Below, in pieces: positions 34,938-45,674 of a stretch of 64,000 bases of DNA; position 1 is the first letter of the stretch, and each line of letters starts with the position of its first letter. The stretch comes from a virus. A program made the translations under genes and the position numbers. The DNA is taken from IMG/VR virus record IMGVR_UViG_3300017917_005108, positions 64,001 through 128,000 of that record, one strand, 5' to 3'. Under the pieces are notes generated by a model that did not search any database, had not been told where the DNA came from, and saw only the letters and a program-made list of their open reading frames with translations.

Positions 34938-35505
34938 TATTGGAAGGGTCAACGTACAGATGGTAGTTAGCATCTTCACTCTTACTCGTCATAATATCAG
35001 TATAAACCCTGTCCTTGTAGTTAGTGACAGTTTCATGATGCTTCTTTTCTTTCTTAATACGGTTAATAAACGCATGAAATGCAATTGTAGTAAAATATGA
35101 AAAAGGACTAAAACCTGAATCTAGCTTAAACTTTTTATTTTTTAATGCTGATACCATCTTTACAATTGCATCGCCGATCATTTCTTCTTTATAGGAGTAA
35201 TTAATAAAATTTGGTGCATAAGATAACCCATGAGCTATCTTAGTGATTGAATCTCCAAGCTTAAGTGAAATGTGATCTGTCTTATAAAAGGTTCTAATTT
35301 CATCTTCAAATTCTTTACCGTTTACATAATGTACTTTTTCTTTTCCTCTTGGTTTTTTACCTTCTTTTAAAAGTTTAGTAGGGTCGGCAACTTTAAGAGC
35401 TTCATCAACGGGAATGTCCTCTGTATCGGTATCTTCCAAGGGAAGATCTACCACATCCTTATTCTTGGACTTCTTTAACTTGGTACGAGATGTTTTCTTT
35501 TTCAT
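34900..35505 (-). CDS. 55: Late transcription sigma factor (gp55)
   Basis: 'HYVNGKEF', 'KIAHGLSYAPNFINYSYKEEMIGDA', 'PFSYFTTIAFHAFINRIKKEKK'. Confidence 0.92.
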   Translation of the reverse strand: MKKKTSRTKLKKSKNKDVVDLPLEDTDTEDIPVDEALKVADPTKLLKEGKKPRGKEKVHYVNGKEFEDEIRTFYKTDHISLKLGDSITKIAHGLSYAPNFINYSYKEEMIGDAIVKMVSALKNKKFKLDSGFSPFSYFTTIAFHAFINRIKKEKKHHETVTNYKDRVYTDIMTSKSEDANYHLYVDPSNNGDDDNYNTAGN

Positions 35506-36925
35506 AAAGTGCTTTTCTTTTTTGGAAATGCTGATAACCATATTGCAAGTTATCAGCAACGTCTACTATTATAAGCTTATCCTTATCCTTATGCAACCGT
35601 AAACCTCTTCCTATCGACTGTAATATCTTAATTTTTGCTTTTCCGCCGCCTGCAAAAACAATATAGTGAAGATTTTTAATATTAATACCTGTGGAAAATA
35701 TCTTTGAAATAGCTACCACAATAATATTATGATGCTCTTCCATAAGTTTTCTAACTTTTTCTCTCTCTTCTACTTCTACTTCTCCTCTTATATAAAACAC
35801 CTGCTTATCGTTACATTTTTCTTTTATGCTATTATAGAGAATTTCACCGTGTTCAATATAGTCAACAAGAATTAATGTATTTTTTACGGTGCCACAGGAA
35901 AATTTTGACAGTAAGTTATTTCTAAAATTATTTTTTATTAGAAAAGAAATCTCAGCTCTATATCTATCAGAAGCGTTTATTAGTTCCTTAGGATATTGCG
36001 GTAGTGTGGTATAATTTAACTGAAGAACTACAACACTAACATTACTAACATAGTTTTCTAATCTCAGTTGATAGCTAGATTTTTCATATAAAACCTGCCC
36101 AATCTTTCCTATTATATTCCATTGATCTAATAAACACTCAGGCATAGTACCTGTAAATCCAAACCTAACAGGCGTTTTTATTATTTTAAATAATTTGTTT
36201 ACCTCGTTACCTCTTCTTATTTTATGAACTTCATCTACTATCAATACATCTATATTTTCTAGCCAACTTAGGTCACTATTTTTGCTTTGTAAAATTCCAA
36301 GATTGGCAATAATAACGTTTGAGGTATCGTTTTTTCCATCTTCTAATGGATATGACCCCGTCCATCTGCGTGTAGAAAAGGGTACATTATAAGAACTAAA
36401 ATCAGTAAATGTTTGTGTTACTAACCCAAGATCGGGAACTATATACAAACATTTAAATTTTTGGCCATATAGTAAAAATAATTTTGTGAGAAGTGATGCA
36501 GCAGTTAGAGTTTTTCCGCCTGCAGTTGCAAGTACTATAGTACCTCTACCAGTATTATACGCGGTTTTAACTATCTCTTCTTGATAATCTCTTAGAGGTA
36601 GTGCTAATTGAACTATAGATGAATTAAACCTATGGTCTTTTTGCCAGATTCTTGATGGTTTAATAACATTTAAAAGTTCTTCCTCTACTTTGATTTCATC
36701 AGAATATTGATTAGTGATAAAGTATTTTTTAATTTCTACTGCTAAGCAGGGATCAAATCTACCGGTGGCTGTAATAGCATAAGTGCGCTGTGGTGCAAAT
36801 CTTCCATAGCCTCTTATAAACTTTGCTGCTTCATTTTTAATAGAAAAGTGTTCTCTAATTTCTTCTAATCTGTCACTAACAAGCAAACCTACGCCTTTTT
36901 TTGCATCGTATTTTAGTTCTGTCAT
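35459..36925 (-). CDS. uvsW: SF2 DNA helicase (UvsW)
   Basis: 'LRDYQ', 'ATAGGKT', 'DEVH', 'GFTGT', 'FSTGINIKNLH', 'QSIGRGLR'. Confidence 0.92.
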   Translation of the reverse strand: MTELKYDAKKGVGLLVSDRLEEIREHFSIKNEAAKFIRGYGRFAPQRTYAITATGRFDPCLAVEIKKYFITNQYSDEIKVEEELLNVIKPSRIWQKDHRFNSSIVQLALPLRDYQEEIVKTAYNTGRGTIVLATAGGKTLTAASLLTKLFLLYGQKFKCLYIVPDLGLVTQTFTDFSSYNVPFSTRRWTGSYPLEDGKNDTSNVIIANLGILQSKNSDLSWLENIDVLIVDEVHKIRRGNEVNKLFKIIKTPVRFGFTGTMPECLLDQWNIIGKIGQVLYEKSSYQLRLENYVSNVSVVVLQLNYTTLPQYPKELINASDRYRAEISFLIKNNFRNNLLSKFSCGTVKNTLILVDYIEHGEILYNSIKEKCNDKQVFYIRGEVEVEEREKVRKLMEEHHNIIVVAISKIFSTGINIKNLHYIVFAGGGKAKIKILQSIGRGLRLHKDKDKLIIVDVADNLQYGYQHFQKRKALYEKENISYQVKEVQE

Positions 36926-37311
36926 GTTGTCTCAAGCTTTATAATTTCTAAAACATTTTTTACATCAAAAGATGCACTGCTTAATGTCTTTTCAGCTTTC
37001 TCTAAAAGCTCTACTACTAGTTCTAATTCTTTTATTTTTATATCAAAATCTTTTATTTCATTAGCATTATCTACTGTTTTTTCTAGAACAGGCATTGAAA
37101 GCTTGACAGATGAAGTTTCATTTAATTTTTTTACCAAGTCTGATTTAAGCTTATCTTTATCTTTTTTTAATTTAGAAATTTCTAGCTTGTGTCTAATTAG
37201 TCGTCCTGCCCACTTATGCTTAATTCCAGGTAATTTTAATGCATAATCCTTAAGATAAAGTTCATCAATCTTAAGATCACTTTCTAATTCTTTTATATAA
37301 TTGTCTAGCAC
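36922..37311 (-). CDS. uvsY: Recombination mediator (UvsY-like)
   Basis: 'DLKIDE..L...ALKLP..KHKW', 'FDVKNVLE'; adjacent to uvsW. Confidence 0.7.
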   Translation of the reverse strand: MLDNYIKELESDLKIDELYLKDYALKLPGIKHKWAGRLIRHKLEISKLKKDKDKLKSDLVKKLNETSSVKLSMPVLEKTVDNANEIKDFDIKIKELELVVELLEKAEKTLSSASFDVKNVLEIIKLETT

Positions 37312-37344
37312 ACATAAATAATAGTATAAGTTTTTTAATTATCA

Positions 37345-37575
37345 ATGATAACGTTTAAACAATATTTTAATGAGCAAAACGTGGCAGGCGGAACAGGTAG
37401 TGTTTTTGGCCCTGGAAATGCAGCTCCAATAGGAAGTACCGGCGGGTCTTTTCCTGCTACAGGTGATACAGCTTTTGCACCAGGTGATTATAGGCTGCCA
37501 AAAATACTTGGAGCTAAAACATTAAAGAAAAAGAAGAAGTCTTATATTCAGAGAAGACCTTTTATTGGTGTATAG
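37345..37575 (+). CDS. Small Gly-rich protein with a CTS-like N-terminus
   Basis: Starts MITFKQYFNE; basic tail. Confidence 0.65.
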   Translation: MITFKQYFNEQNVAGGTGSVFGPGNAAPIGSTGGSFPATGDTAFAPGDYRLPKILGAKTLKKKKKSYIQRRPFIGV

Positions 37576-37592
37576 GTTGTCTAAATAGACTT

Positions 37593-38006
37593 GTGGATAC
37601 AGGTCATTGGTTACTAAGAGAAGGAGTTAAAATAGATGAGAATACTTTTGGCTTTATATATGAAATTATAAACAAAATAAATGGAAAGAAGTATATTGGA
37701 AAAAAGCAGTGTAAATCTAAGTTAAAAAGAAAGCCATTAAAGGGTAAGAAGAATAAGAGAATAGAAATAAAAGAATCTGATTGGAAGGATTATACTTCTT
37801 CATCTAAAGAATTAAATGAAGATATACAAAAATACGGAAAAGAAAATTTTGAATTTATTATTATAAGAGAATGCGGTTCAAAGTGGGAATTGGCTTATTT
37901 TGAAATAAAAGAACAGATTGAAAAAAATGTTTTAATGAAGGATGATTATTATAATGGTATAATAAATGTTCGAATTGGAAGGCCGCCGAAGAAATTTCTT
38001 GATTAG
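37593..38006 (+). CDS. GIY-YIG-family (Seg-like) endonuclease, catalytic domain only
   Basis: 'GFIYEI...KKYIGKK', 'ESDWKDYTSSS', 'E...Q', 'YYNG'. Confidence 0.8.
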   Translation: MDTGHWLLREGVKIDENTFGFIYEIINKINGKKYIGKKQCKSKLKRKPLKGKKNKRIEIKESDWKDYTSSSKELNEDIQKYGKENFEFIIIRECGSKWELAYFEIKEQIEKNVLMKDDYYNGIINVRIGRPPKKFLD

Positions 38007-38032
38007 GTTAAAGAGGTATTCCATAATACAAT

Positions 38033-38596
38033 ATGCTAAAAGATCTTTTGCTGAAAGAATATAACATTCATATTATAAATTTTAGCTACATTTTTAATAA
38101 CTATATAGAAAAAGATTTGTTAGATGATCTTTATAAGTATGAGCTGTTAGGTGAGAAAAAAGATAAAACTATAAAGCGTTTGTTTTTTCATCATACAATT
38201 TTTAACTTATGTAATTATTTGCTAAAAAATAGTGGTAGAGAAAAGATTGTTGTGTTTTTTGATAGTAATAATGTTTACGATAGTAATATAGCAAAATATA
38301 TGAGTGAAGAGAAGGTAAAAAAGTATTTAGAAATGGTAGTTAAGAAAATAAAAACTATATTGCCTATAAGACTGTTTCACTCAACTTTTACATTTGATTA
38401 TTTTGTATTTAAATTTCTTAAAAAAGATGGTATAGGTAAAGAAACCCTATTTAAAATAAAGAAAGTTATAGATATCAGTGATTTTAATAAGTTTACATTT
38501 GAAAAATGTAAGAAGTTTACTAAAAAAGAAGGTTTATTATTTTTAGATAAACATTATTTTAATACACTCAAATCTAAACAATTACTGCTTGTTTAA
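38033..38596 (+). CDS. Hypothetical protein
   Basis: ORF; TTGATT-N17-CATAAT upstream. Confidence 0.6.
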   Translation: MLKDLLLKEYNIHIINFSYIFNNYIEKDLLDDLYKYELLGEKKDKTIKRLFFHHTIFNLCNYLLKNSGREKIVVFFDSNNVYDSNIAKYMSEEKVKKYLEMVVKKIKTILPIRLFHSTFTFDYFVFKFLKKDGIGKETLFKIKKVIDISDFNKFTFEKCKKFTKKEGLLFLDKHYFNTLKSKQLLLV

Positions 38597-38607
38597 TAAA
38601 TACTTCT

Positions 38608-39078
38608 ATGGGATTTAAAGAAAAGCTTAACGAGTATGTTCTCTCTCTAGAACAAGATAATGCTCAACCAGTTGGACAGCCTCAACAGCAAGATGCTACA
38701 CAGCCTGTTACACAACAAATACCAGTTCCGATGCCAAAGAAAGGTGAAGAAAGTGGCACACAAAAAGTGGCACCCGAGGGATACGTTGAATTAGTGAGAT
38801 TACTAGCAAAAGCTCTTGTTATGAATGTTCCACCGGAGTCTATTGATCAACTTTTTTCAACTGATATAAGTAAAGAAAATGCAGAAGCTGTTGCACAAGG
38901 TCTCCAGGATCTTATAGCAACTACTGGTAATTTTAAAGATAATCCAGAAAGAACAGAAAATAAAAACTTTTTAAAATTCTATAATTCTATTAATGAAAAT
39001 AATTTTTATTCAAAAATGAAGACTATTATTTCTGCAATGAAGAAATATAGTAAAGATGTAGACATTAATTTAAAATGA
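38608..39078 (+). CDS. Hypothetical late protein, first gene of a late operon
   Basis: TAAATA at 38597-38602; Gln/Pro-rich N-terminus. Confidence 0.7.
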   Translation: MGFKEKLNEYVLSLEQDNAQPVGQPQQQDATQPVTQQIPVPMPKKGEESGTQKVAPEGYVELVRLLAKALVMNVPPESIDQLFSTDISKENAEAVAQGLQDLIATTGNFKDNPERTENKNFLKFYNSINENNFYSKMKTIISAMKKYSKDVDINLK

Positions 39079-40214
39079 ATAAAAAATATAAACGTTTAGA
39101 TGACGTTTACCTCAATAATACTTTTGGTAAAGTCGTGAAGCCAGTTGTTGGCATGCCTGAAAACTATATGGCTTTTTTTAAAGAATATGCAGAAGTTTTA
39201 ATTCAAAAAGATCCGCCTAAGGGTGAAGTTAAGGACTATAAGGTATCAGATGATACTGCAAAAAAGCTTTCACAAGCTTTAGATGTAAAGGAGCCCAATC
39301 AACAGGTTATAGTATCATACTTAAATCAAAAAGGATATTCAACTAATTCTTTTAAGGGAAAAGGGTTTGATGTAATAGTAGATACAGTTTTAGAAAATAA
39401 CGAACAAGATGTAGCTTCTTTTACTAATTTTATTAAAGGGACAGAAAAACCAAAACTTTTAAACAATTTATCCGGTAATTTAAAGGATATAGGTCAAAAG
39501 TATAATTTAAGTCCTAATATAATTCAGTCCTTAGCTACCTTAAGTTTATTAGATAATACAAGCAATGCAGTAGGTCCCGGTGAAATAGCTATTGGTGTAC
39601 TTTTTGAAGACATAAAAAATAGTTCAACTACAGGTGACTTAGAGCTTAATGGTAAGAAAGTAGAAGTTAAAGGTTCAGGTGGTAGAATGGGATTGCAGCC
39701 TGGTAGATCTCCACAAACAGTAGATTCACTTATTTTTGTTGAACCTTTTTTAAAAAATAAAGAAACTATAGATAATTATAAAAACATAGTACTTAATAGT
39801 AAGTACGGTCAAAGTGTTAGAGAGAAAGCGAATGATTTAATTTATAATTTGGTAGTAAGTTATAACTTTGTAAGTGATAAAAATGCTGTATATGAACACA
39901 TTGTAAAAAAACTTGATGAGCTTTATGGCTATGGTGCAAGGCATGCAAGAGAATATATTACAAAGCCGTTATTACAGAGTGCAGATTATAATGCAATAAA
40001 AAAAGCAATGTTTAAATTGTATGCTAGAGGTTATTTAGAAAAAAATAAAATTGATGGTTATCTTATTAATGTAAATAACAATTTAGATTATATTGTAATT
40101 ACTTTAGAGCAATTACTAGAGAGTGGTACAGGTTATATAGATACAGGTAAGCTAGTTGTTAGTAATTTTAGATTTAAAAATTTATATCCAAGTATTAATA
40201 TAGGAAAAATATAA
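39075..40214 (+). CDS. Putative PD-(D/E)xK nuclease-fold protein
   Basis: 'GPGEIA...GDLELNGKKVEVKG' (D-x8-ExK). Confidence 0.5.
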   Translation: MNKKYKRLDDVYLNNTFGKVVKPVVGMPENYMAFFKEYAEVLIQKDPPKGEVKDYKVSDDTAKKLSQALDVKEPNQQVIVSYLNQKGYSTNSFKGKGFDVIVDTVLENNEQDVASFTNFIKGTEKPKLLNNLSGNLKDIGQKYNLSPNIIQSLATLSLLDNTSNAVGPGEIAIGVLFEDIKNSSTTGDLELNGKKVEVKGSGGRMGLQPGRSPQTVDSLIFVEPFLKNKETIDNYKNIVLNSKYGQSVREKANDLIYNLVVSYNFVSDKNAVYEHIVKKLDELYGYGARHAREYITKPLLQSADYNAIKKAMFKLYARGYLEKNKIDGYLINVNNNLDYIVITLEQLLESGTGYIDTGKLVVSNFRFKNLYPSINIGKI

Positions 40215-41428
40215 TGCAAACGTTTGAAGAGTTTTTAATACTTGAAGGTGGGGCTGCTGGTCATATGGCTCATCCGTTTGACTTAAATAGTGTAAAAACT
40301 GGAAATGATTTAGTAAATTTTTTTAAAAAAGCACTATTGAGTGTTAAAAAACAAAAGACAAGTGTAAAGTTTGATGGTCTTAATATTAGTTTAAAGGTTG
40401 TAGAAGCTGATGGTAAGATGCAGTTTGCACTTGACAGGGGATCAAATAAACCTGCAGATATAAAAGGTATTACTATTGATAAATTAGAAGAAAGATTTGA
40501 TAAAGGTCATGGAATGATACCGGTGGGTAAATTTGTTTTAGGTGTAATGAATAGTTCTATAGAATTAATAATGCCTGAGCTAAAGAAATTAGGTCTATTA
40601 AGATCTAATAAATTTTTAAACACTGAATACGTTACAGGGCAAACTAATGTTACTGAGTATGATAGAAATATGATAGTATTTCATGGTGTTAATGAGTTTT
40701 TTGTAGAAAAGAGCAAACTTAGGGGTACATCTAAAAGAGTATCAAAAGAGGTTTCTTACAACAAGGCTTCTTTAAATGAGATGGTACAAAAATTAAAGCC
40801 AATATTTAAACAACATGAATTTGAAGTTTTTGGCCCTACACAGGCTTCACTAACAGGTGAAGTAGATTTTAGTGGTGCATTAAATTCAACACTAGGTATA
40901 GCTTTTACAAAAAGTGATACAGAAACTAAATCTTTAAAAAATTGGTTATTTCAAGCTAAAAATCCAAAAAGTTTGTTTGTAAGAAGTGCTCAAAATAAAA
41001 AAATACCTGCTATGTCAAAAGCAAATTATTTATATGTTTTATCTGGTAAGCCTATAGATGCTTTGGTAGGTGAGAATAAGCAATATCAAAAAGCAATTGC
41101 AGATGGAGCAATAATTTATCATGCAACAAGAATGCTCGGTAATGAGTTATTGAAAGCTATGGGGTCTGATGCAGGAGAGCTTGCTAAGCATGAAGGTGTT
41201 GTTTTAAGAGATATAAGTCTTGCTTCTGTACCGGTGAAGATAACCGGTGAATTTATTGTTAAAGGAATGGCTAGTCCTTTTCAAAAATCTGAAAATGAAG
41301 AGAATATTGGAGGTTATATAGGTGCAATAAATTATGCAAACACAACTGGAGACTATATGAATATAAAAGATTATGTCACTACTCCAGATTATGGCACCCC
41401 TCCTCGTGTAGGAGGATTTACTACATGA
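40214..41428 (+). CDS. RNA/DNA-ligase-fold nucleotidyltransferase with a CTS-like N-terminus
   Basis: 'GHMAHPFD', motif I 'VKFDG', 'NTEY', motif IV 'HEGVVLR', motif V 'VKITGEF'. Confidence 0.6.
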   Translation: MQTFEEFLILEGGAAGHMAHPFDLNSVKTGNDLVNFFKKALLSVKKQKTSVKFDGLNISLKVVEADGKMQFALDRGSNKPADIKGITIDKLEERFDKGHGMIPVGKFVLGVMNSSIELIMPELKKLGLLRSNKFLNTEYVTGQTNVTEYDRNMIVFHGVNEFFVEKSKLRGTSKRVSKEVSYNKASLNEMVQKLKPIFKQHEFEVFGPTQASLTGEVDFSGALNSTLGIAFTKSDTETKSLKNWLFQAKNPKSLFVRSAQNKKIPAMSKANYLYVLSGKPIDALVGENKQYQKAIADGAIIYHATRMLGNELLKAMGSDAGELAKHEGVVLRDISLASVPVKITGEFIVKGMASPFQKSENEENIGGYIGAINYANTTGDYMNIKDYVTTPDYGTPPRVGGFTT

Positions 41429-41982
41429 CATTTAGAAAATTTTTTTTAGAGCAAGTACATAACTCAATAGTAATACTACCTGGTGGATTTAAGCCACCGC
41501 ATAAAGGTCATTTTGAAGCATTAAAGTTTTTGCTTAAAAATTCAGATGCAAAAAAAGCTATTGTATTAGTAGGTGCAGCAGAAAGAGATGGCATTAACCA
41601 GGATCAATCTATAAAAATATGGAATATATATAAAAAATATATTCCTGCTGAAGTTGAAATTGTTCCGGTTGTTGGTGTAGATAAAGCAGGAAGACCAGCT
41701 ACACCTCTTAGTATGACATATGATTTTATAGAAGATAATCAAAACAGCTATAACAAATTTTATGTTGGTGCAGGTACAGAGGATTTAGCAAGATTTAAAG
41801 GGTTAGAAAAAGATAAAAACAAATATAAAGGTGCATTTATTGTATCCATACCACCACAATTTAGTAGAATATCAGGCACTGAAACTAGAAAACTATTATC
41901 AAAAAAAGATAAAACTGCCCTTAATTTTATACCAGCAGAAGTAAAAGAAAGAGAACAGATAGCTAAAATTTTAGGATTCTAA
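41425..41982 (+). CDS. HIGH-superfamily nucleotidyltransferase (cytidylyl/NMN-adenylyl-type) with a CTS-like N-terminus
   Basis: 'PGGFKPPHKGH', 'GTED', 'ISGTETR'. Confidence 0.8.
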   Translation: MTFRKFFLEQVHNSIVILPGGFKPPHKGHFEALKFLLKNSDAKKAIVLVGAAERDGINQDQSIKIWNIYKKYIPAEVEIVPVVGVDKAGRPATPLSMTYDFIEDNQNSYNKFYVGAGTEDLARFKGLEKDKNKYKGAFIVSIPPQFSRISGTETRKLLSKKDKTALNFIPAEVKEREQIAKILGF

Positions 41983-42678
41983 CTGTTTAATTATTTCTAT
42001 AAAAAGCTTTTCTTTTGTTTCTTTTGATTCCTTAGTGAGTACTTTCTTTAAGTTATCTATTAAAGAATCACCGCCTTTAGCAATAGCGTTATATAAATCA
42101 ATTTCCGTTTCTTCCTGCAGCCCACCAGCAGTTAATAATTGATTTTTAAATTGTTCAAAATCTTTATAGCCAAAAACAGAGTTTAAATTATCATGTGCTT
42201 TAGAAATTTTATCTAATACCCAAGCTTCAACTCCATCGCCACCCCTCATTAAAGGATAAAGCATAGAAGATAGTTTAAAGATTCTAAAAATTAACTGCTT
42301 TGCCATATAAGAATCGGAATCTGTATCTTCATGATCTACGCCACAGCTACCGCCGCACTCTTCACATCCTTCATCTTCTTCTGGAGTTTCTTCTGCTTGA
42401 CCGGGTACAGCGGCCTGGGGGCCAGTTGCTGGTTGTGTTGTTGTGGTTGTACTAGTTTGAGTAGAAGGGGCTAGTATTTGCGCAGTCACCATTCTTTTCA
42501 TAGGTTCAGTTGGTGCTTTTTGAACTACTCCATCTTTAACAATCTTCTTATCTACTTTAGATCTTTTTTCGGGAGATAGACCTTCACTTGGACCATCTTG
42601 AACCATTTGGCCCATATTAAGTTCCATTATGTTTTTTGCATATGCTTCATTAAGAAGCTCAAAATCTTTCTTAAACAT
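41971..42678 (-). CDS. Hypothetical late protein (possible virion internal protein)
   Basis: TAAATA at 42693-42688; 'DFELLNEAY'; 'EAWVLDKISKA'. Confidence 0.7.
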   Translation of the reverse strand: MFKKDFELLNEAYAKNIMELNMGQMVQDGPSEGLSPEKRSKVDKKIVKDGVVQKAPTEPMKRMVTAQILAPSTQTSTTTTTQPATGPQAAVPGQAEETPEEDEGCEECGGSCGVDHEDTDSDSYMAKQLIFRIFKLSSMLYPLMRGGDGVEAWVLDKISKAHDNLNSVFGYKDFEQFKNQLLTAGGLQEETEIDLYNAIAKGGDSLIDNLKKVLTKESKETKEKLFIEIIKQLES

Positions 42679-42726
42679 ATCTATTATTATTTATTAAAAT
42701 TTGAGTTAAACTTATAAATATTATTA

Positions 42727-43023
42727 ATGAAATCTTTTGAGACATTGTTTTTAGAATCTATTAATAATGATCTTGTTAGTGAGAAATCTAGCGCTAGATG
42801 CACAAAAGTTACTCAAAAGGCTTCATCCACAAGACCAGGTAAAAAATGGATGAAATGTGTTAAGTCTGGTTCTGGATATAAAAGAATACATTGGGGTCAA
42901 GCAGGAGTAAGAGTAACAGGAAAATCAGGAAATACTAAGCGTAAAAAGTCATTTAGAGCACGTCATAAATGCAGTTCAGCAAAACCAGGTACACCAAGAT
43001 ATCAAGCTTGTAAGGATTGGTAA
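42727..43023 (+). CDS. Small basic Cys/His protein ('RKKSFRARHKC' family of T4-like phages) with a CTS-like N-terminus
   Basis: TATAAATA at 42713-42720; 'IHWGQ..KRKKSFRARHKC...RYQACKDW'. Confidence 0.75.
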   Translation: MKSFETLFLESINNDLVSEKSSARCTKVTQKASSTRPGKKWMKCVKSGSGYKRIHWGQAGVRVTGKSGNTKRKKSFRARHKCSSAKPGTPRYQACKDW

Positions 43024-43024
43024 T

Positions 43025-43156
43025 ATGAAATCGTTTAAACAATATTTTTTAGAAAAAAAAGTTGCTCCACGTGGTGTATGTTGGAAGGGTTATAAGATGG
43101 TTGGTATGAAGAAAAAAGGTAATAAAGAAGTTCCTAATTGTGTACCAAAAAAATGA
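43025..43156 (+). CDS. 43-aa protein missing from the ORF track: MKSFKQYFLEKKVAPRGVCWKGYKMVGMKKKGNKEVPNCVPKK
   Basis: Manual translation; fills the gap exactly with an ATGA overlap to the next gene; CWxGY...VPNCVP motif. Confidence 0.8.
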   Translation: MKSFKQYFLEKKVAPRGVCWKGYKMVGMKKKGNKEVPNCVPKK

Positions 43157-43551
43157 AGACATTTAAAAATTTTTTTATAGAAAAAGTAGTACTGTCTGTT
43201 AAAGAGCCTATAGAAATTATAGGGGCAGGTAAGGCTGATGCTAAGGTAGATACAGGTAATGAAGCTTTCAACGTACTTCATGGTGTAGATATAAAAGAAG
43301 AAAATGGTGAAGCAATCTTTAAAACAATTAATAATAAAGTATTAAAGAAAAAAATAATTGATAGTGTTTCTATTAATATTGGTAGTGGTAATATAGAAAA
43401 AAGACCTGTTGTTGAAGTTGAATTTATCCTACACGGTAAAAACTATAAAAGGCCTTTTAGTTTAGCAGATAGAAGTACAAATGATGAGCCTATTTTATTG
43501 GGAGAAATTTTCTTAAAAGAAATAGATGCTGTTGTTGATGTTAACATCTAG
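43153..43551 (+). CDS. Retropepsin-like aspartic protease (RimB / 'ATP-dependent Zn protease' family) with a CTS-like N-terminus
   Basis: 'AKVDTGN', 'EKRPVV', 'SLADRS....ILLG..FL'. Confidence 0.78.
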   Translation: MKTFKNFFIEKVVLSVKEPIEIIGAGKADAKVDTGNEAFNVLHGVDIKEENGEAIFKTINNKVLKKKIIDSVSINIGSGNIEKRPVVEVEFILHGKNYKRPFSLADRSTNDEPILLGEIFLKEIDAVVDVNI

Positions 43552-43874: not shown

Positions 43875-44531
43875 CTAAATTAGTTTCCGATTTTGAGCAA
43901 ATTCAATAAACTTATAAAATTCATTTCTTGAATTATCTTTATCATCTAAAAATGCACCAGACATTCTAGCAGTACGCATTGTAGAATCGTGTCTAATACC
44001 ACGATTCGAACAACAAGTATGAGCAGCTTCAATCATAACAGCAACACCCTTATTCTTTTCACATACCTCATCAATATACTTGTGAATTTGCATAGTAAGA
44101 TTTTCTTGTACTTGAGGGCGTCTAGCAAACCAGTCTACAATACGATTCAACTTACTTAACCCAATAACTTTACCATCTTTAGAAGGAATGTAGGCAACAT
44201 GTGCAAATCCCATAAATGGTGCATGGTGATGTGAGCAGAGAGAAGTGACCTTAATATTAGTCTGTGCTACAATACCGTCATACTTATCAACATTATCAAA
44301 AGCTGTAACTTTAGGTGGTTCACTATAACATCCCCAGGCAAAATCTTCAACAAATGCTTTAGCTACTCTATGAGGTGTATTAGAGCTATTAGGGTCATTT
44401 CTCCAATCGTAACCTAGAGCATCCATATAGGCTTCATAAGCCTTAGCGGCCTTTTCTACTATAAGTTTACGTTCTTCCTCAGTATGAGGGTGATTATGAT
44501 TTGCAAAAGCTAGTTTTTTCTTATTAAACAT
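43875..44531 (-). CDS. folE: GTP cyclohydrolase I
   Basis: 'TPHRVAK', 'SLCSHH', 'AYIP', 'GLSKLNRIV...ARRPQVQE', 'HTCCSNRG'. Confidence 0.92.
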   Translation of the reverse strand: MFNKKKLAFANHNHPHTEEERKLIVEKAAKAYEAYMDALGYDWRNDPNSSNTPHRVAKAFVEDFAWGCYSEPPKVTAFDNVDKYDGIVAQTNIKVTSLCSHHHAPFMGFAHVAYIPSKDGKVIGLSKLNRIVDWFARRPQVQENLTMQIHKYIDEVCEKNKGVAVMIEAAHTCCSNRGIRHDSTMRTARMSGAFLDDKDNSRNEFYKFIEFAQNRKLI

Positions 44532-44578
44532 ATATTTTTATTATAATATATAAGAGTTCAATTTCAATAAATAATTGT

Positions 44579-45013: not shown

Positions 45014-45674
45014 GTTTGATAGCTACGTAAATTCTATCCTAGAGGAGGGAATTATGGGAAATATTAAAGCTGCAGCAAAAACAGCAGTAAAACTTCCGTT
45101 TAAAGCCGCAGGTGGATTAACAAAGAAAATAGTTAACCCTGCAGCCTGGTTAAGAGGTGCTGCAAATGTTGTTGGAGGTGCAAATAAACTATTATCTGTA
45201 CCAGGTAAAGCTATAGATACTGCCCATCAAATAGTTCAATCAGGAGATGTGGTATCTCCTGTAGCAAATGCTTTGCAGTCAGGCTTACAGGGTGCAGCAA
45301 ATGTAGCTTCAAAAACAGGCCAAGCTATAGCTGGTTATTACCAGAAGCAAAAAACATCTGGTGGATCTAATGCATTAAAAGGTTTGAATTTAGGACTTAA
45401 GAATGCAGTGGGAACTGCTTCAGGAGCTGCAAAAAATGCTACATCTTATGCAAATAGTGTTCTATATAATGTAGGCGCTATGGCTAGGGCAGCAATTGGG
45501 CAAAATTCACCTTTTACATTCCCTAAAGGTATTAGTGATCCAAAAAGACTTAAAGTGGGAGATACTTTTACTCAAATTAACAAAAAAACCGGTCAAGCTA
45601 CAGCTTATACAGTAGTAGATAAGTCAAGAGATGGTCAGAATATAGTAGCAGCACCGGTAGAATTTTATAAATAG
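45003..45674 (+). CDS. Ala/Gly-rich basic late protein
   Basis: Starts MTNKFDSYVNSILEEG; amphipathic low-complexity body. Confidence 0.7.
   Translation: MTNKFDSYVNSILEEGIMGNIKAAAKTAVKLPFKAAGGLTKKIVNPAAWLRGAANVVGGANKLLSVPGKAIDTAHQIVQSGDVVSPVANALQSGLQGAANVASKTGQAIAGYYQKQKTSGGSNALKGLNLGLKNAVGTASGAAKNATSYANSVLYNVGAMARAAIGQNSPFTFPKGISDPKRLKVGDTFTQINKKTGQATAYTVVDKSRDGQNIVAAPVEFYK

Follow-up and report, generated by a model that had tools for sequence, protein, structure and literature searches.

Two well-known classes of enzyme, the nucleic-acid ligases and the nicotinamide mononucleotide (NMN) adenylyltransferases (NMNATs), are the nearest described counterparts of a pair of proteins encoded side by side in an uncultured T4-like virus from water. 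In classical ligases motif V reads K-x-K, with two lysines, and in NMNAT-type chemistry AMP is transferred directly from ATP onto a nucleotide 5′-phosphate in a reversible reaction. The pair considered here lies at the end of a chain of four genes (positions 38608–41982) in a stretch of 64,000 nucleotides, bases 64001–128000 of the 162,497-base IMG/VR virus contig IMGVR_UViG_3300017917_005108, which is rated 77% complete. We refer to this whole stretch as the window, and positions are those of the window unless the contig is named.

The chain can also be compared with proteins that are loaded into phage heads. The capsid-targeting sequence (CTS) of T4 is ten residues long (PMC8442874); targeting depends on residues 4 and 7 and processing on residues 8 and 10, and T4 propeptides have lengths of 10–19 residues (PMC9026906). 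Polyvalent, virion-embedded phage proteins are treated in Iyer et al. 2017 (PMC5512222) and described in PMC9503650. Among the cyanophages, the virion proteome of S-CREM2 includes a cytidylyltransferase, an enzyme of a kind frequently detected in cyanophage virions (PMC10665884).

The four-gene chain and its paired enzymes

The chain and the box that heads it are made up as follows.

38595–38602, + strand: late-promoter-like NATAAATA box, sequence AATAAATA, 5 nt upstream of the first ATG of the chain
38608–39078, + strand: 156-aa protein with no assigned role and a Gln/Pro-rich, acidic N-terminal half
39075–40214, + strand: 379-aa PD-(D/E)xK-like putative nuclease, from invariant residues and topology
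40214–41428, + strand: 404-aa ligase-like covalent nucleotidyltransferase, with predicted leader 1–11 (40214–40246), core 12–358 and disordered tail 359–404
41425–41982, + strand: 185-aa HIGH-motif nucleotidyltransferase, NMNAT-like, with HxGH and ISGTxxR motifs and predicted leader 1–9 (41425–41451)

The four reading frames overlap in order through ATGA, TAATG and ATGA junctions, and between 38596 and 42714 the + strand holds no NATAAATA box other than the one that heads the chain. An earlier note on this DNA had described four overlapping genes behind a single late box, and coordinates, junctions and the lone box at 38595–38602 agree with that description. With 16 copies on one strand and 10 on the other, the heptamer shows no enrichment across the window; its placement is the notable feature, as five of the seven copies within 36–46 kb directly precede start codons in the correct orientation. 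Boxes at 38595–38602, 42713–42720, 44566–44573, 45666–45673 and, on the − strand, 42694 lie 5–9 nt upstream of starts, and similar late boxes adjoin the starts of the genes at 42727, 44579 and 42678 (− strand). Since no Shine-Dalgarno sequence is visible and the boxes lie so close to the starts, the late mRNAs would have little or no 5′ untranslated leader. In 37200–43200, sigma-70-like sites and terminator-like hairpins were not above chance.

To follow the chain in other viruses, 80 further independent IMG/VR loci were fetched by family pattern. The 156-aa protein has no family match, and its homologues occupy the equivalent position in the related contigs L006 and L003 and, in 25 of the 80 loci, lie two genes 5′ of the one for the ligase-like protein. 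In 23 of these loci by profile, and in 26 by clustering, a member of the nuclease-like family stands directly 5′ of the ligase-like gene. With the one at −2 and the other at −1 across many loci, the chain is a conserved unit of a T4-like clade rather than a local accident.

The ligase-like protein and the nucleotidyltransferase are almost always found together. Using hidden Markov models built from our own family alignments, we found the nucleotidyltransferase domain fused in 136 of the 267 ligase-like proteins collected (101 with the ligase-like domain first, 35 in the reverse order), some with intervening domains. Across the 80 loci it is fused in 53, is encoded by the next gene in 15 and lies elsewhere in 2, while 6 have none and 4 end at the ligase-like gene. 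A nucleotidyltransferase gene also follows 3′ of the ligase-like gene in the related contigs L006–L008 and in an uncultured 462-kb phage. The strongest functional statement possible, judged from this sequence record, is that the two enzymes would work together. Some members of the ligase-like family sit inside polyvalent proteins of 600–1600 residues that also contain Tad3, DUF5661, DUF192, GNAT and SET domains, and the genes around the fused clade encode primase, gp47 and, for the most part, uncharacterised proteins. For two of the polyvalent members the context is a short contig with little information.

The 404-aa protein is identified, by its motifs together with consistent fold matches of its predicted structure, as a ligase-type covalent nucleotidyltransferase. 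It contains K52-F-D-G55, E327-G-V-V and K342, and in an alignment of 55 diverse family members K52, D54, G55, N57, N136, N145, E327, G328, K342 and G345 are invariant, E138, the motif III glutamate, is kept in at least 90%, and an N-terminal G-G-A-A-G-H-M-x-H-P-F-D segment is almost invariant. The family is large, with 918 matches in a word-indexed search and, from an exhaustive one, 600 representatives of clusters made at 50% identity, and its conserved core spans residues 8–358. Sequence databases gave little for this protein: Pfam, PHROG and NCBIfam returned no match, including the ligase models PF09414, PF09511 and PF01068, the family profile matched no PDB sequence, and the sole match in a direct protein search was the 462-kb phage.

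The AlphaFold2 model (predicted local distance difference test score, pLDDT, 85; predicted template modelling score, pTM, 0.81) is disordered at residues 1–15 and 359–404. Foldseek against the PDB placed T4 Rnl1, T4 Rnl2 and the adenylyltransferase domain of fungal tRNA ligase at the top, with weak E-values, followed by the trypanosome editing ligase at rank 9 and archaeal RNA ligases from rank 11 on. In an independent wide PDB search places 1–13 were all RNA or DNA ligases (Z 5.9–7.8), the best being T4 Rnl1 with Z 7.8 and a root mean square deviation of 4.5 Å over 184 aligned residues, with DNA ligases, among them Pmar-Lig at Z 7.0, and capping enzymes below it. In BFVD the protein's own family members were followed by a long series of viral RNA ligases. 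The model has no OB domain; motifs IIIa and IV are separated by an insertion of about 150 residues, and motif V has a single lysine (K-I-T). The region that follows motif I (about 95–210), which may be a substrate-binding insert, weakly resembles the RumA/TrmA central domain as well as RNA-binding folds of the KH-like and RbfA types (Z about 4).

The 185-aa protein carries P-G-G-F-K-P-P-H26-K-G-H29 and I-S-G-T-E-T-R, in which H29 and R155 are invariant in its family. Its family profile finds archaeal NMNAT MJ0541 (2.4e-9) and NadM-Nudix first in the PDB and then PPAT, and the single sequence finds archaeal NMNATs only, weakly. PF01467 reaches E 0.006, under the cut-off, and all curated NMNAT models, whose equivalog cut-offs span 112–181 bits, failed widely (TIGR01527 15.3 bits against 181, NF002243 20.8 against 127). 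A direct protein search returned Flavobacterium phages only; the link to cyanophages was found through the partner of a ligase orthologue. In L006 the nucleotidyltransferase gene adjoining the ligase orthologue belongs to the phage ‘cytidyltransferase’ PHROG (phrog_3041 at 1e-40); 559 phage records, chiefly of cyanophages, contain relatives of it. The 185-aa protein is a divergent member of that family, with weak matches to phrog_3041 and phrog_395. The earlier note had read covalent nucleotidyltransferase motifs (KFDG, EGVV, terminal K) and a ligase fold in gene 40214, and the HxGH and SxTxxR class in gene 41425: the former motifs are invariant in the 55 homologues and RNA and DNA ligases lead both fold searches, and the latter motifs are present with a profile closest to archaeal NMNAT.

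A 907-aa protein of a Flavobacterium phage annotated as ‘NadR’ was considered as a relative of the ligase-like protein and rejected, as its N-terminal part is unrelated (hhalign E 0.4). This protein, from the Flavobacterium phage immuto (L001:5119–7839), has a Pol-beta-like GS...DxD N-terminus (by eye), a nucleotidyltransferase domain and a C-terminus with two HExxH motifs, and is another polyvalent arrangement of the nucleotidyltransferase domain, minus the ligase-like domain.

For the 379-aa protein, invariant residues and topology tentatively suggest a PD-(D/E)xK identity. The motif is D188-x8-E197-V-K199, and E170, D188, E197 and K199 are invariant in 11 sequences. In the model E170 lies in a helix (170–176), D188 precedes a strand (189–191) and E197 and K199 fall in another (194–199), and the predicted helix and three strands follow the canonical order. 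Nine homologues were found initially, and a profile that included the diverged copies in L003 and L004 widened the family. Foldseek on the model gave nothing clear. The fold search gave weak matches to MspI, HhaI, HinP1I and PvuII (Z 2.7–3.2), with five restriction endonucleases in the first 36 rows (Z 2.6–3.2). Of the PD-(D/E)xK-like assignment in the earlier note, the invariant D-x8-ExK motif and the fitting order of secondary structure hold, while the fold matches reach only Z about 3.

A similar pair is annotated in cultured cyanophages without an assigned function. In Prochlorococcus phage P-HM2 the protein PHM2_162, a DUF6267 protein (T4-GC 71, E 1e-124), is encoded by a gene that overlaps the start of PHM2_163, a ‘cytidyltransferase’ (T4-GC 190). 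In the ESM Atlas clusters that come closest to the 404-aa protein by features and shape, 21% of members bear DUF6267 (template modelling score 0.81), and a protein of S-PM2 matches the 404-aa model in BFVD at E 4e-6. The DUF6267 Pfam model matched neither the 404-aa protein nor 55 of its relatives, and a comparison with one individual DUF6267 sequence found nothing; the family profile aligned with cyanophage DUF6267 sequences in the KxDG region only (E 0.021). We regard the 404-aa protein as a remote relative of DUF6267. Close relatives of DUF6267, to which the count is confined, form at least 8000 clusters in cyanophage metagenomes, and a search of a literature library found no paper naming the family. 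The recurrence of the gene pair in T4-like phages, which the earlier note had mentioned, is seen in many uncultured T4-like contigs and, remotely, in the cyanophage pair of DUF6267 and cytidyltransferase.

Leaders and predicted loading into the head

The 404-, 185- and 156-aa proteins begin with leaders that resemble the T4 capsid-targeting sequence and end in [LIV]-x-E. The 404-aa protein starts M-Q-T-F-E-E-F-L-I-L-E, with F4, F7, L8 and E11, and the 185-aa protein starts M-T-F-R-K-F-F-L-E, the same pattern in one residue less. CTS-like peptides had been noted earlier on both enzymes, and their leaders fit the T4 targeting and processing residues. In the 156-aa protein the leader has 15 residues ending in L-S-L-E (38608–38652), and its homologues keep M-x-F-...-[LI]-x-E. 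The 379-aa protein has a leader of a second type at residues 1–37 (39075–39185), which is disordered and ends F-K-E37. This type, of about 33 residues, reads Y-K-S-L, then P-R-Q, then [LIV]-x-E; it heads the 379-aa family and is unrelated to the CTS-like type. Some 20 ligase orthologues carry it instead of the CTS-like leader, and both types are disordered in the predicted models.

The junction between leader and domain is strongly conserved. Among family members in which the domain is not at the start, the residue before G-G-A-A-G-H-M is Glu in 190 of 199 (background 2.3% per residue), and position −3 is L, I, V, M or F in all 199, including domains internal to polyproteins. A further 20 family members start exactly with M-G-G-A-A-G-H-M, at the predicted cut. 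That two unrelated leaders can stand in for each other ahead of one mature N-terminus is difficult to account for other than by their being address tags that can be removed. The contig also encodes a gp21-type prohead protease (Peptidase_S77, PF03420, E 1.5e-36; contig positions 130677–131117). As all four proteins carry tags of the removable, head-loading type, they are probably packaged in the head and injected with the DNA, a view that draws on the leaders and on the proteomics of distant cyanophage relatives.

A genome-wide scan for the CTS-like pattern found it nearly confined to neighbouring genes at 37345–43551. This island of small genes with CTS-like leaders encodes, among others, a Gly-rich protein of 76 aa (37345), a very basic 98-aa DUF5754-like protein (42727), a basic peptide of 43 aa (43025) and a 132-aa retropepsin-like protein (PF05618; 43153), and leader-bearing homologues recur in related contigs.

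What the enzymes may do

Starting from the observed folds, motifs, pairing, synteny, leaders and protease, we infer packaging, cleavage, a nucleic-acid substrate and a division of labour between the two transferases. In the reading we favour, which on the sequence evidence we give about an even chance, the chain would encode head-packaged, injected enzymes that process and seal nucleic-acid ends. The products of a late operon of a T4-like myovirus would enter the prohead by their N-terminal propeptides, a gp21-type protease would trim these after [LIV]-x-E, and the enzymes would be ejected into the host with the DNA. Both types of enzyme move AMP onto a phosphate: the ligase-type enzyme would then form Lys52-AMP and pass AMP to a 5′-phosphate, and NMNAT-like enzymes, in their usual chemistry, make or break the same kind of A5′pp5′N pyrophosphate bond. 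With the nuclease-like partner they would form a kit for trimming and resealing, or capping, broken ends at the onset of infection, in repair or counter-defence. That both enzymes act on nucleic-acid ends is suggested by the nuclease-like partner and the similarity in shape to RNA ligases; that they would act upon injection, by the late promoter, the leaders and the polyvalent fusions.

Several points weigh against this. We know of no HIGH nucleotidyltransferase that acts on nucleic-acid ends, and across the 80 loci neither the conserved block nor the immediate surroundings of the pair yielded an end-healing kinase or phosphoesterase. The fold matches of the 404-aa protein reach Z 7.8 at most, in a range that the tool calls middling, and it is the agreement among the matches, together with the motifs, that carries the claim; the single lysine of motif V and the insertion of about 150 residues may mean a chemistry other than ordinary sealing. 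As to packaging, the [LIV]-x-E ahead of the domain might belong to the fold itself instead of marking a cut site, the DUF6267 and cytidyltransferase proteins of P-HM2 have no leaders, and the authors of the S-CREM2 study caution that detection in virions might be carry-over (PMC10665884). RNA repair, NAD+ replenishment and a modification relay, the roles proposed in the earlier note, are hypothetical.

A module for NAD+ or a related cofactor, in which the 185-aa protein is a true NMNAT countering NAD+-depleting defences and the ligase-like enzyme takes NAD+ or a related dinucleotide as substrate or yields it as product, for example by passing AMP from Lys-AMP to NMN, seems to us unlikely. The nearest solved relatives of the nucleotidyltransferase are archaeal NMNAT and NadM-Nudix, its F-x-P-x-H-x-G-H motif is NadM-like, and two paired adenylyl-transferring enzymes would suit a cofactor relay; however, the NMNAT equivalog models are missed (15 bits against 112–181), PF01467 stays sub-threshold, no nicotinate or nicotinamide phosphoribosyltransferase (NAPRTase, Nampt) was found in the 162-kb contig (77% complete), the products of NADases are ADP-ribose and nicotinamide rather than NMN, and the ligase-like fold has no known member that acts on small molecules only. 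The anti-Thoeris domain Tad3 occurs fused to some family members, and Thoeris depletes NAD+ (PMC13728456), but polyvalent proteins combine unrelated domains, which makes such a fusion unspecific. The placement of the module among uvsW, uvsY, gp46/47 and primase genes would instead suit a ligase of replication or recombination, acting inside the cell and not injected, with the 404-aa protein substituting for T4 gp30, the DNA ligase that marine-type T4-like phages lack. Neither PF01068, PF01653 nor PF09414 is found in the 162-kb contig, and PF01068 is missing from the complete P-HM2 genome and the partial S-P4 record; the fold matches include DNA ligases (Pmar-Lig, Z 7.0), and DUF6267 is very widespread, as its cyanophage metagenome clusters show. 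This proposal has little probability in our view, since the promoter is of the late and not of the early or middle kind, the protein has no OB domain and ranks RNA ligases highest, removable leaders, polyvalent fusions and the obligate nucleotidyltransferase partner are left unexplained, and in a contig 77% complete gp30 could be elsewhere.

We consider very improbable a takeover of the AMPylation type in which host proteins or small molecules are nucleotidylated by the pair and the nuclease-like protein is unrelated cargo. The pair is joined with takeover-type GNAT, SET and MucR-like domains in polyvalent proteins, and the odd motif V and large insertion could mean a non-canonical acceptor, but we know of no precedent for protein modification by the ligase-like fold or by HIGH nucleotidyltransferases, and the nuclease-like gene kept directly 5′ in 26 loci argues for a shared nucleic-acid theme. 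Returning to injected enzymes acting on nucleic-acid ends, a more specific proposal, which we put forward with considerable doubt, is an undescribed injected system in which the NMNAT-like enzyme would make or remove an A5′pp5′N adenylate on nucleic-acid 5′ ends that the ligase-like enzyme also handles. It would be a preloaded means of capping, sealing or rescue, with two interchangeable propeptides routing both enzymes and the nuclease, and in marine T4-like phages without gp30 the ligase-like enzyme would perhaps also be the missing DNA ligase.

Few uncharacterised enzyme pairs of aquatic T4-like phages are as widespread as the ligase-like and nucleotidyltransferase pair, whose remote DUF6267 branch is present in thousands of cyanophage clusters. 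If the proteins are injected, T4-type head cargo extends beyond small inhibitors to catalytic nucleic-acid enzymes, and this would, if true, explain the recurrent cytidylyltransferases in cyanophage virion proteomes. The leaders and the [LIV]-x-E cut rule would make a simple predictor of head cargo for uncultured phages, and the obligate pairing poses a concrete biochemical question that is answerable with recombinant proteins.

Surroundings and comparison with known systems

The window has a G+C content of about 30%, and the genes that flank the chain are of the T4-like myovirus type, including the following.

35459–36925, − strand: UvsW helicase
36922–37311, − strand: UvsY
37593–38006: SegE-type GIY-YIG protein
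43875–44531, − strand: GTP cyclohydrolase I (folE)

The order gp46/gp47, uvsW, uvsY, folE is common to related metagenomic contigs, while a DNA-level search of the region against 50,697 phage records gave no match. The SegE-type GIY-YIG gene holds a constant syntenic place in 29 related loci, which is unusual among homing endonucleases and suggests a domesticated role. Directly before the chain lies a gene for a 187-aa protein (38033–38596) that has no family match and no late box of its own and is kept in 27 related loci. On the − strand a conserved gene for a 235-aa protein (41971–42678) is convergent with the 185-aa nucleotidyltransferase gene and covers its final 12 nt; the protein has an acidic, Cys-rich middle and no family, and its homologues are co-located in L006 and L003 and in 26 of the 80 loci.

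Compared with the ATP-dependent RNA ligases (T4 Rnl1, Rnl2, the fungal Trl1 ligase domain, archaeal Rnl3 and Naegleria NgrRnl), the 404-aa protein shares the nucleotidyltransferase fold, the K-x-D-G-x-N motif I, the motif III and IV glutamates, a motif V lysine and the want of an OB domain. Unlike them it has a nearly invariant G-G-A-A-G-H-M-x-H-P-F-D, an insert of about 150 residues and only the one lysine in motif V, shows no detectable sequence similarity to them, and belongs to a family that is always paired with a HIGH nucleotidyltransferase. The 185-aa protein likewise shares HxGH, ISxTxxR and length with the NadM-type NMN adenylyltransferases (M. jannaschii MJ0541 and NadM-Nudix), whereas it falls below all curated NMNAT thresholds and is obligately tied to the ligase-like enzyme.

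The cyanophage pair of DUF6267 and cytidyltransferase has the same two-gene layout with a stop/start overlap as the window, and DUF6267 has parallel H-x-x-H-x-x-D, K-x-D-G, E-G-x-V and K motifs, although the 404-aa protein has no match to the DUF6267 model and the nucleotidyltransferase of the window reaches phrog_3041 and phrog_395 only at E 0.013 and 0.024. With the T4 internal proteins IPI–IPIII and Alt, which carry a capsid-targeting sequence, are processed by gp21 and are ejected, the chain shares aromatic residues at 4 and 7 followed by aliphatic-x-Glu, the clustering of unrelated cargo behind late promoters and a gp21-type protease; it differs in that the putative cargo consists of enzymes of another kind and that a second, longer leader is in use. 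Like the polyvalent virion-embedded phage proteins, the ligase-like family includes domains of large multidomain proteins, whereas the window encodes the domains in separate genes that are coupled in translation and individually equipped with leaders.

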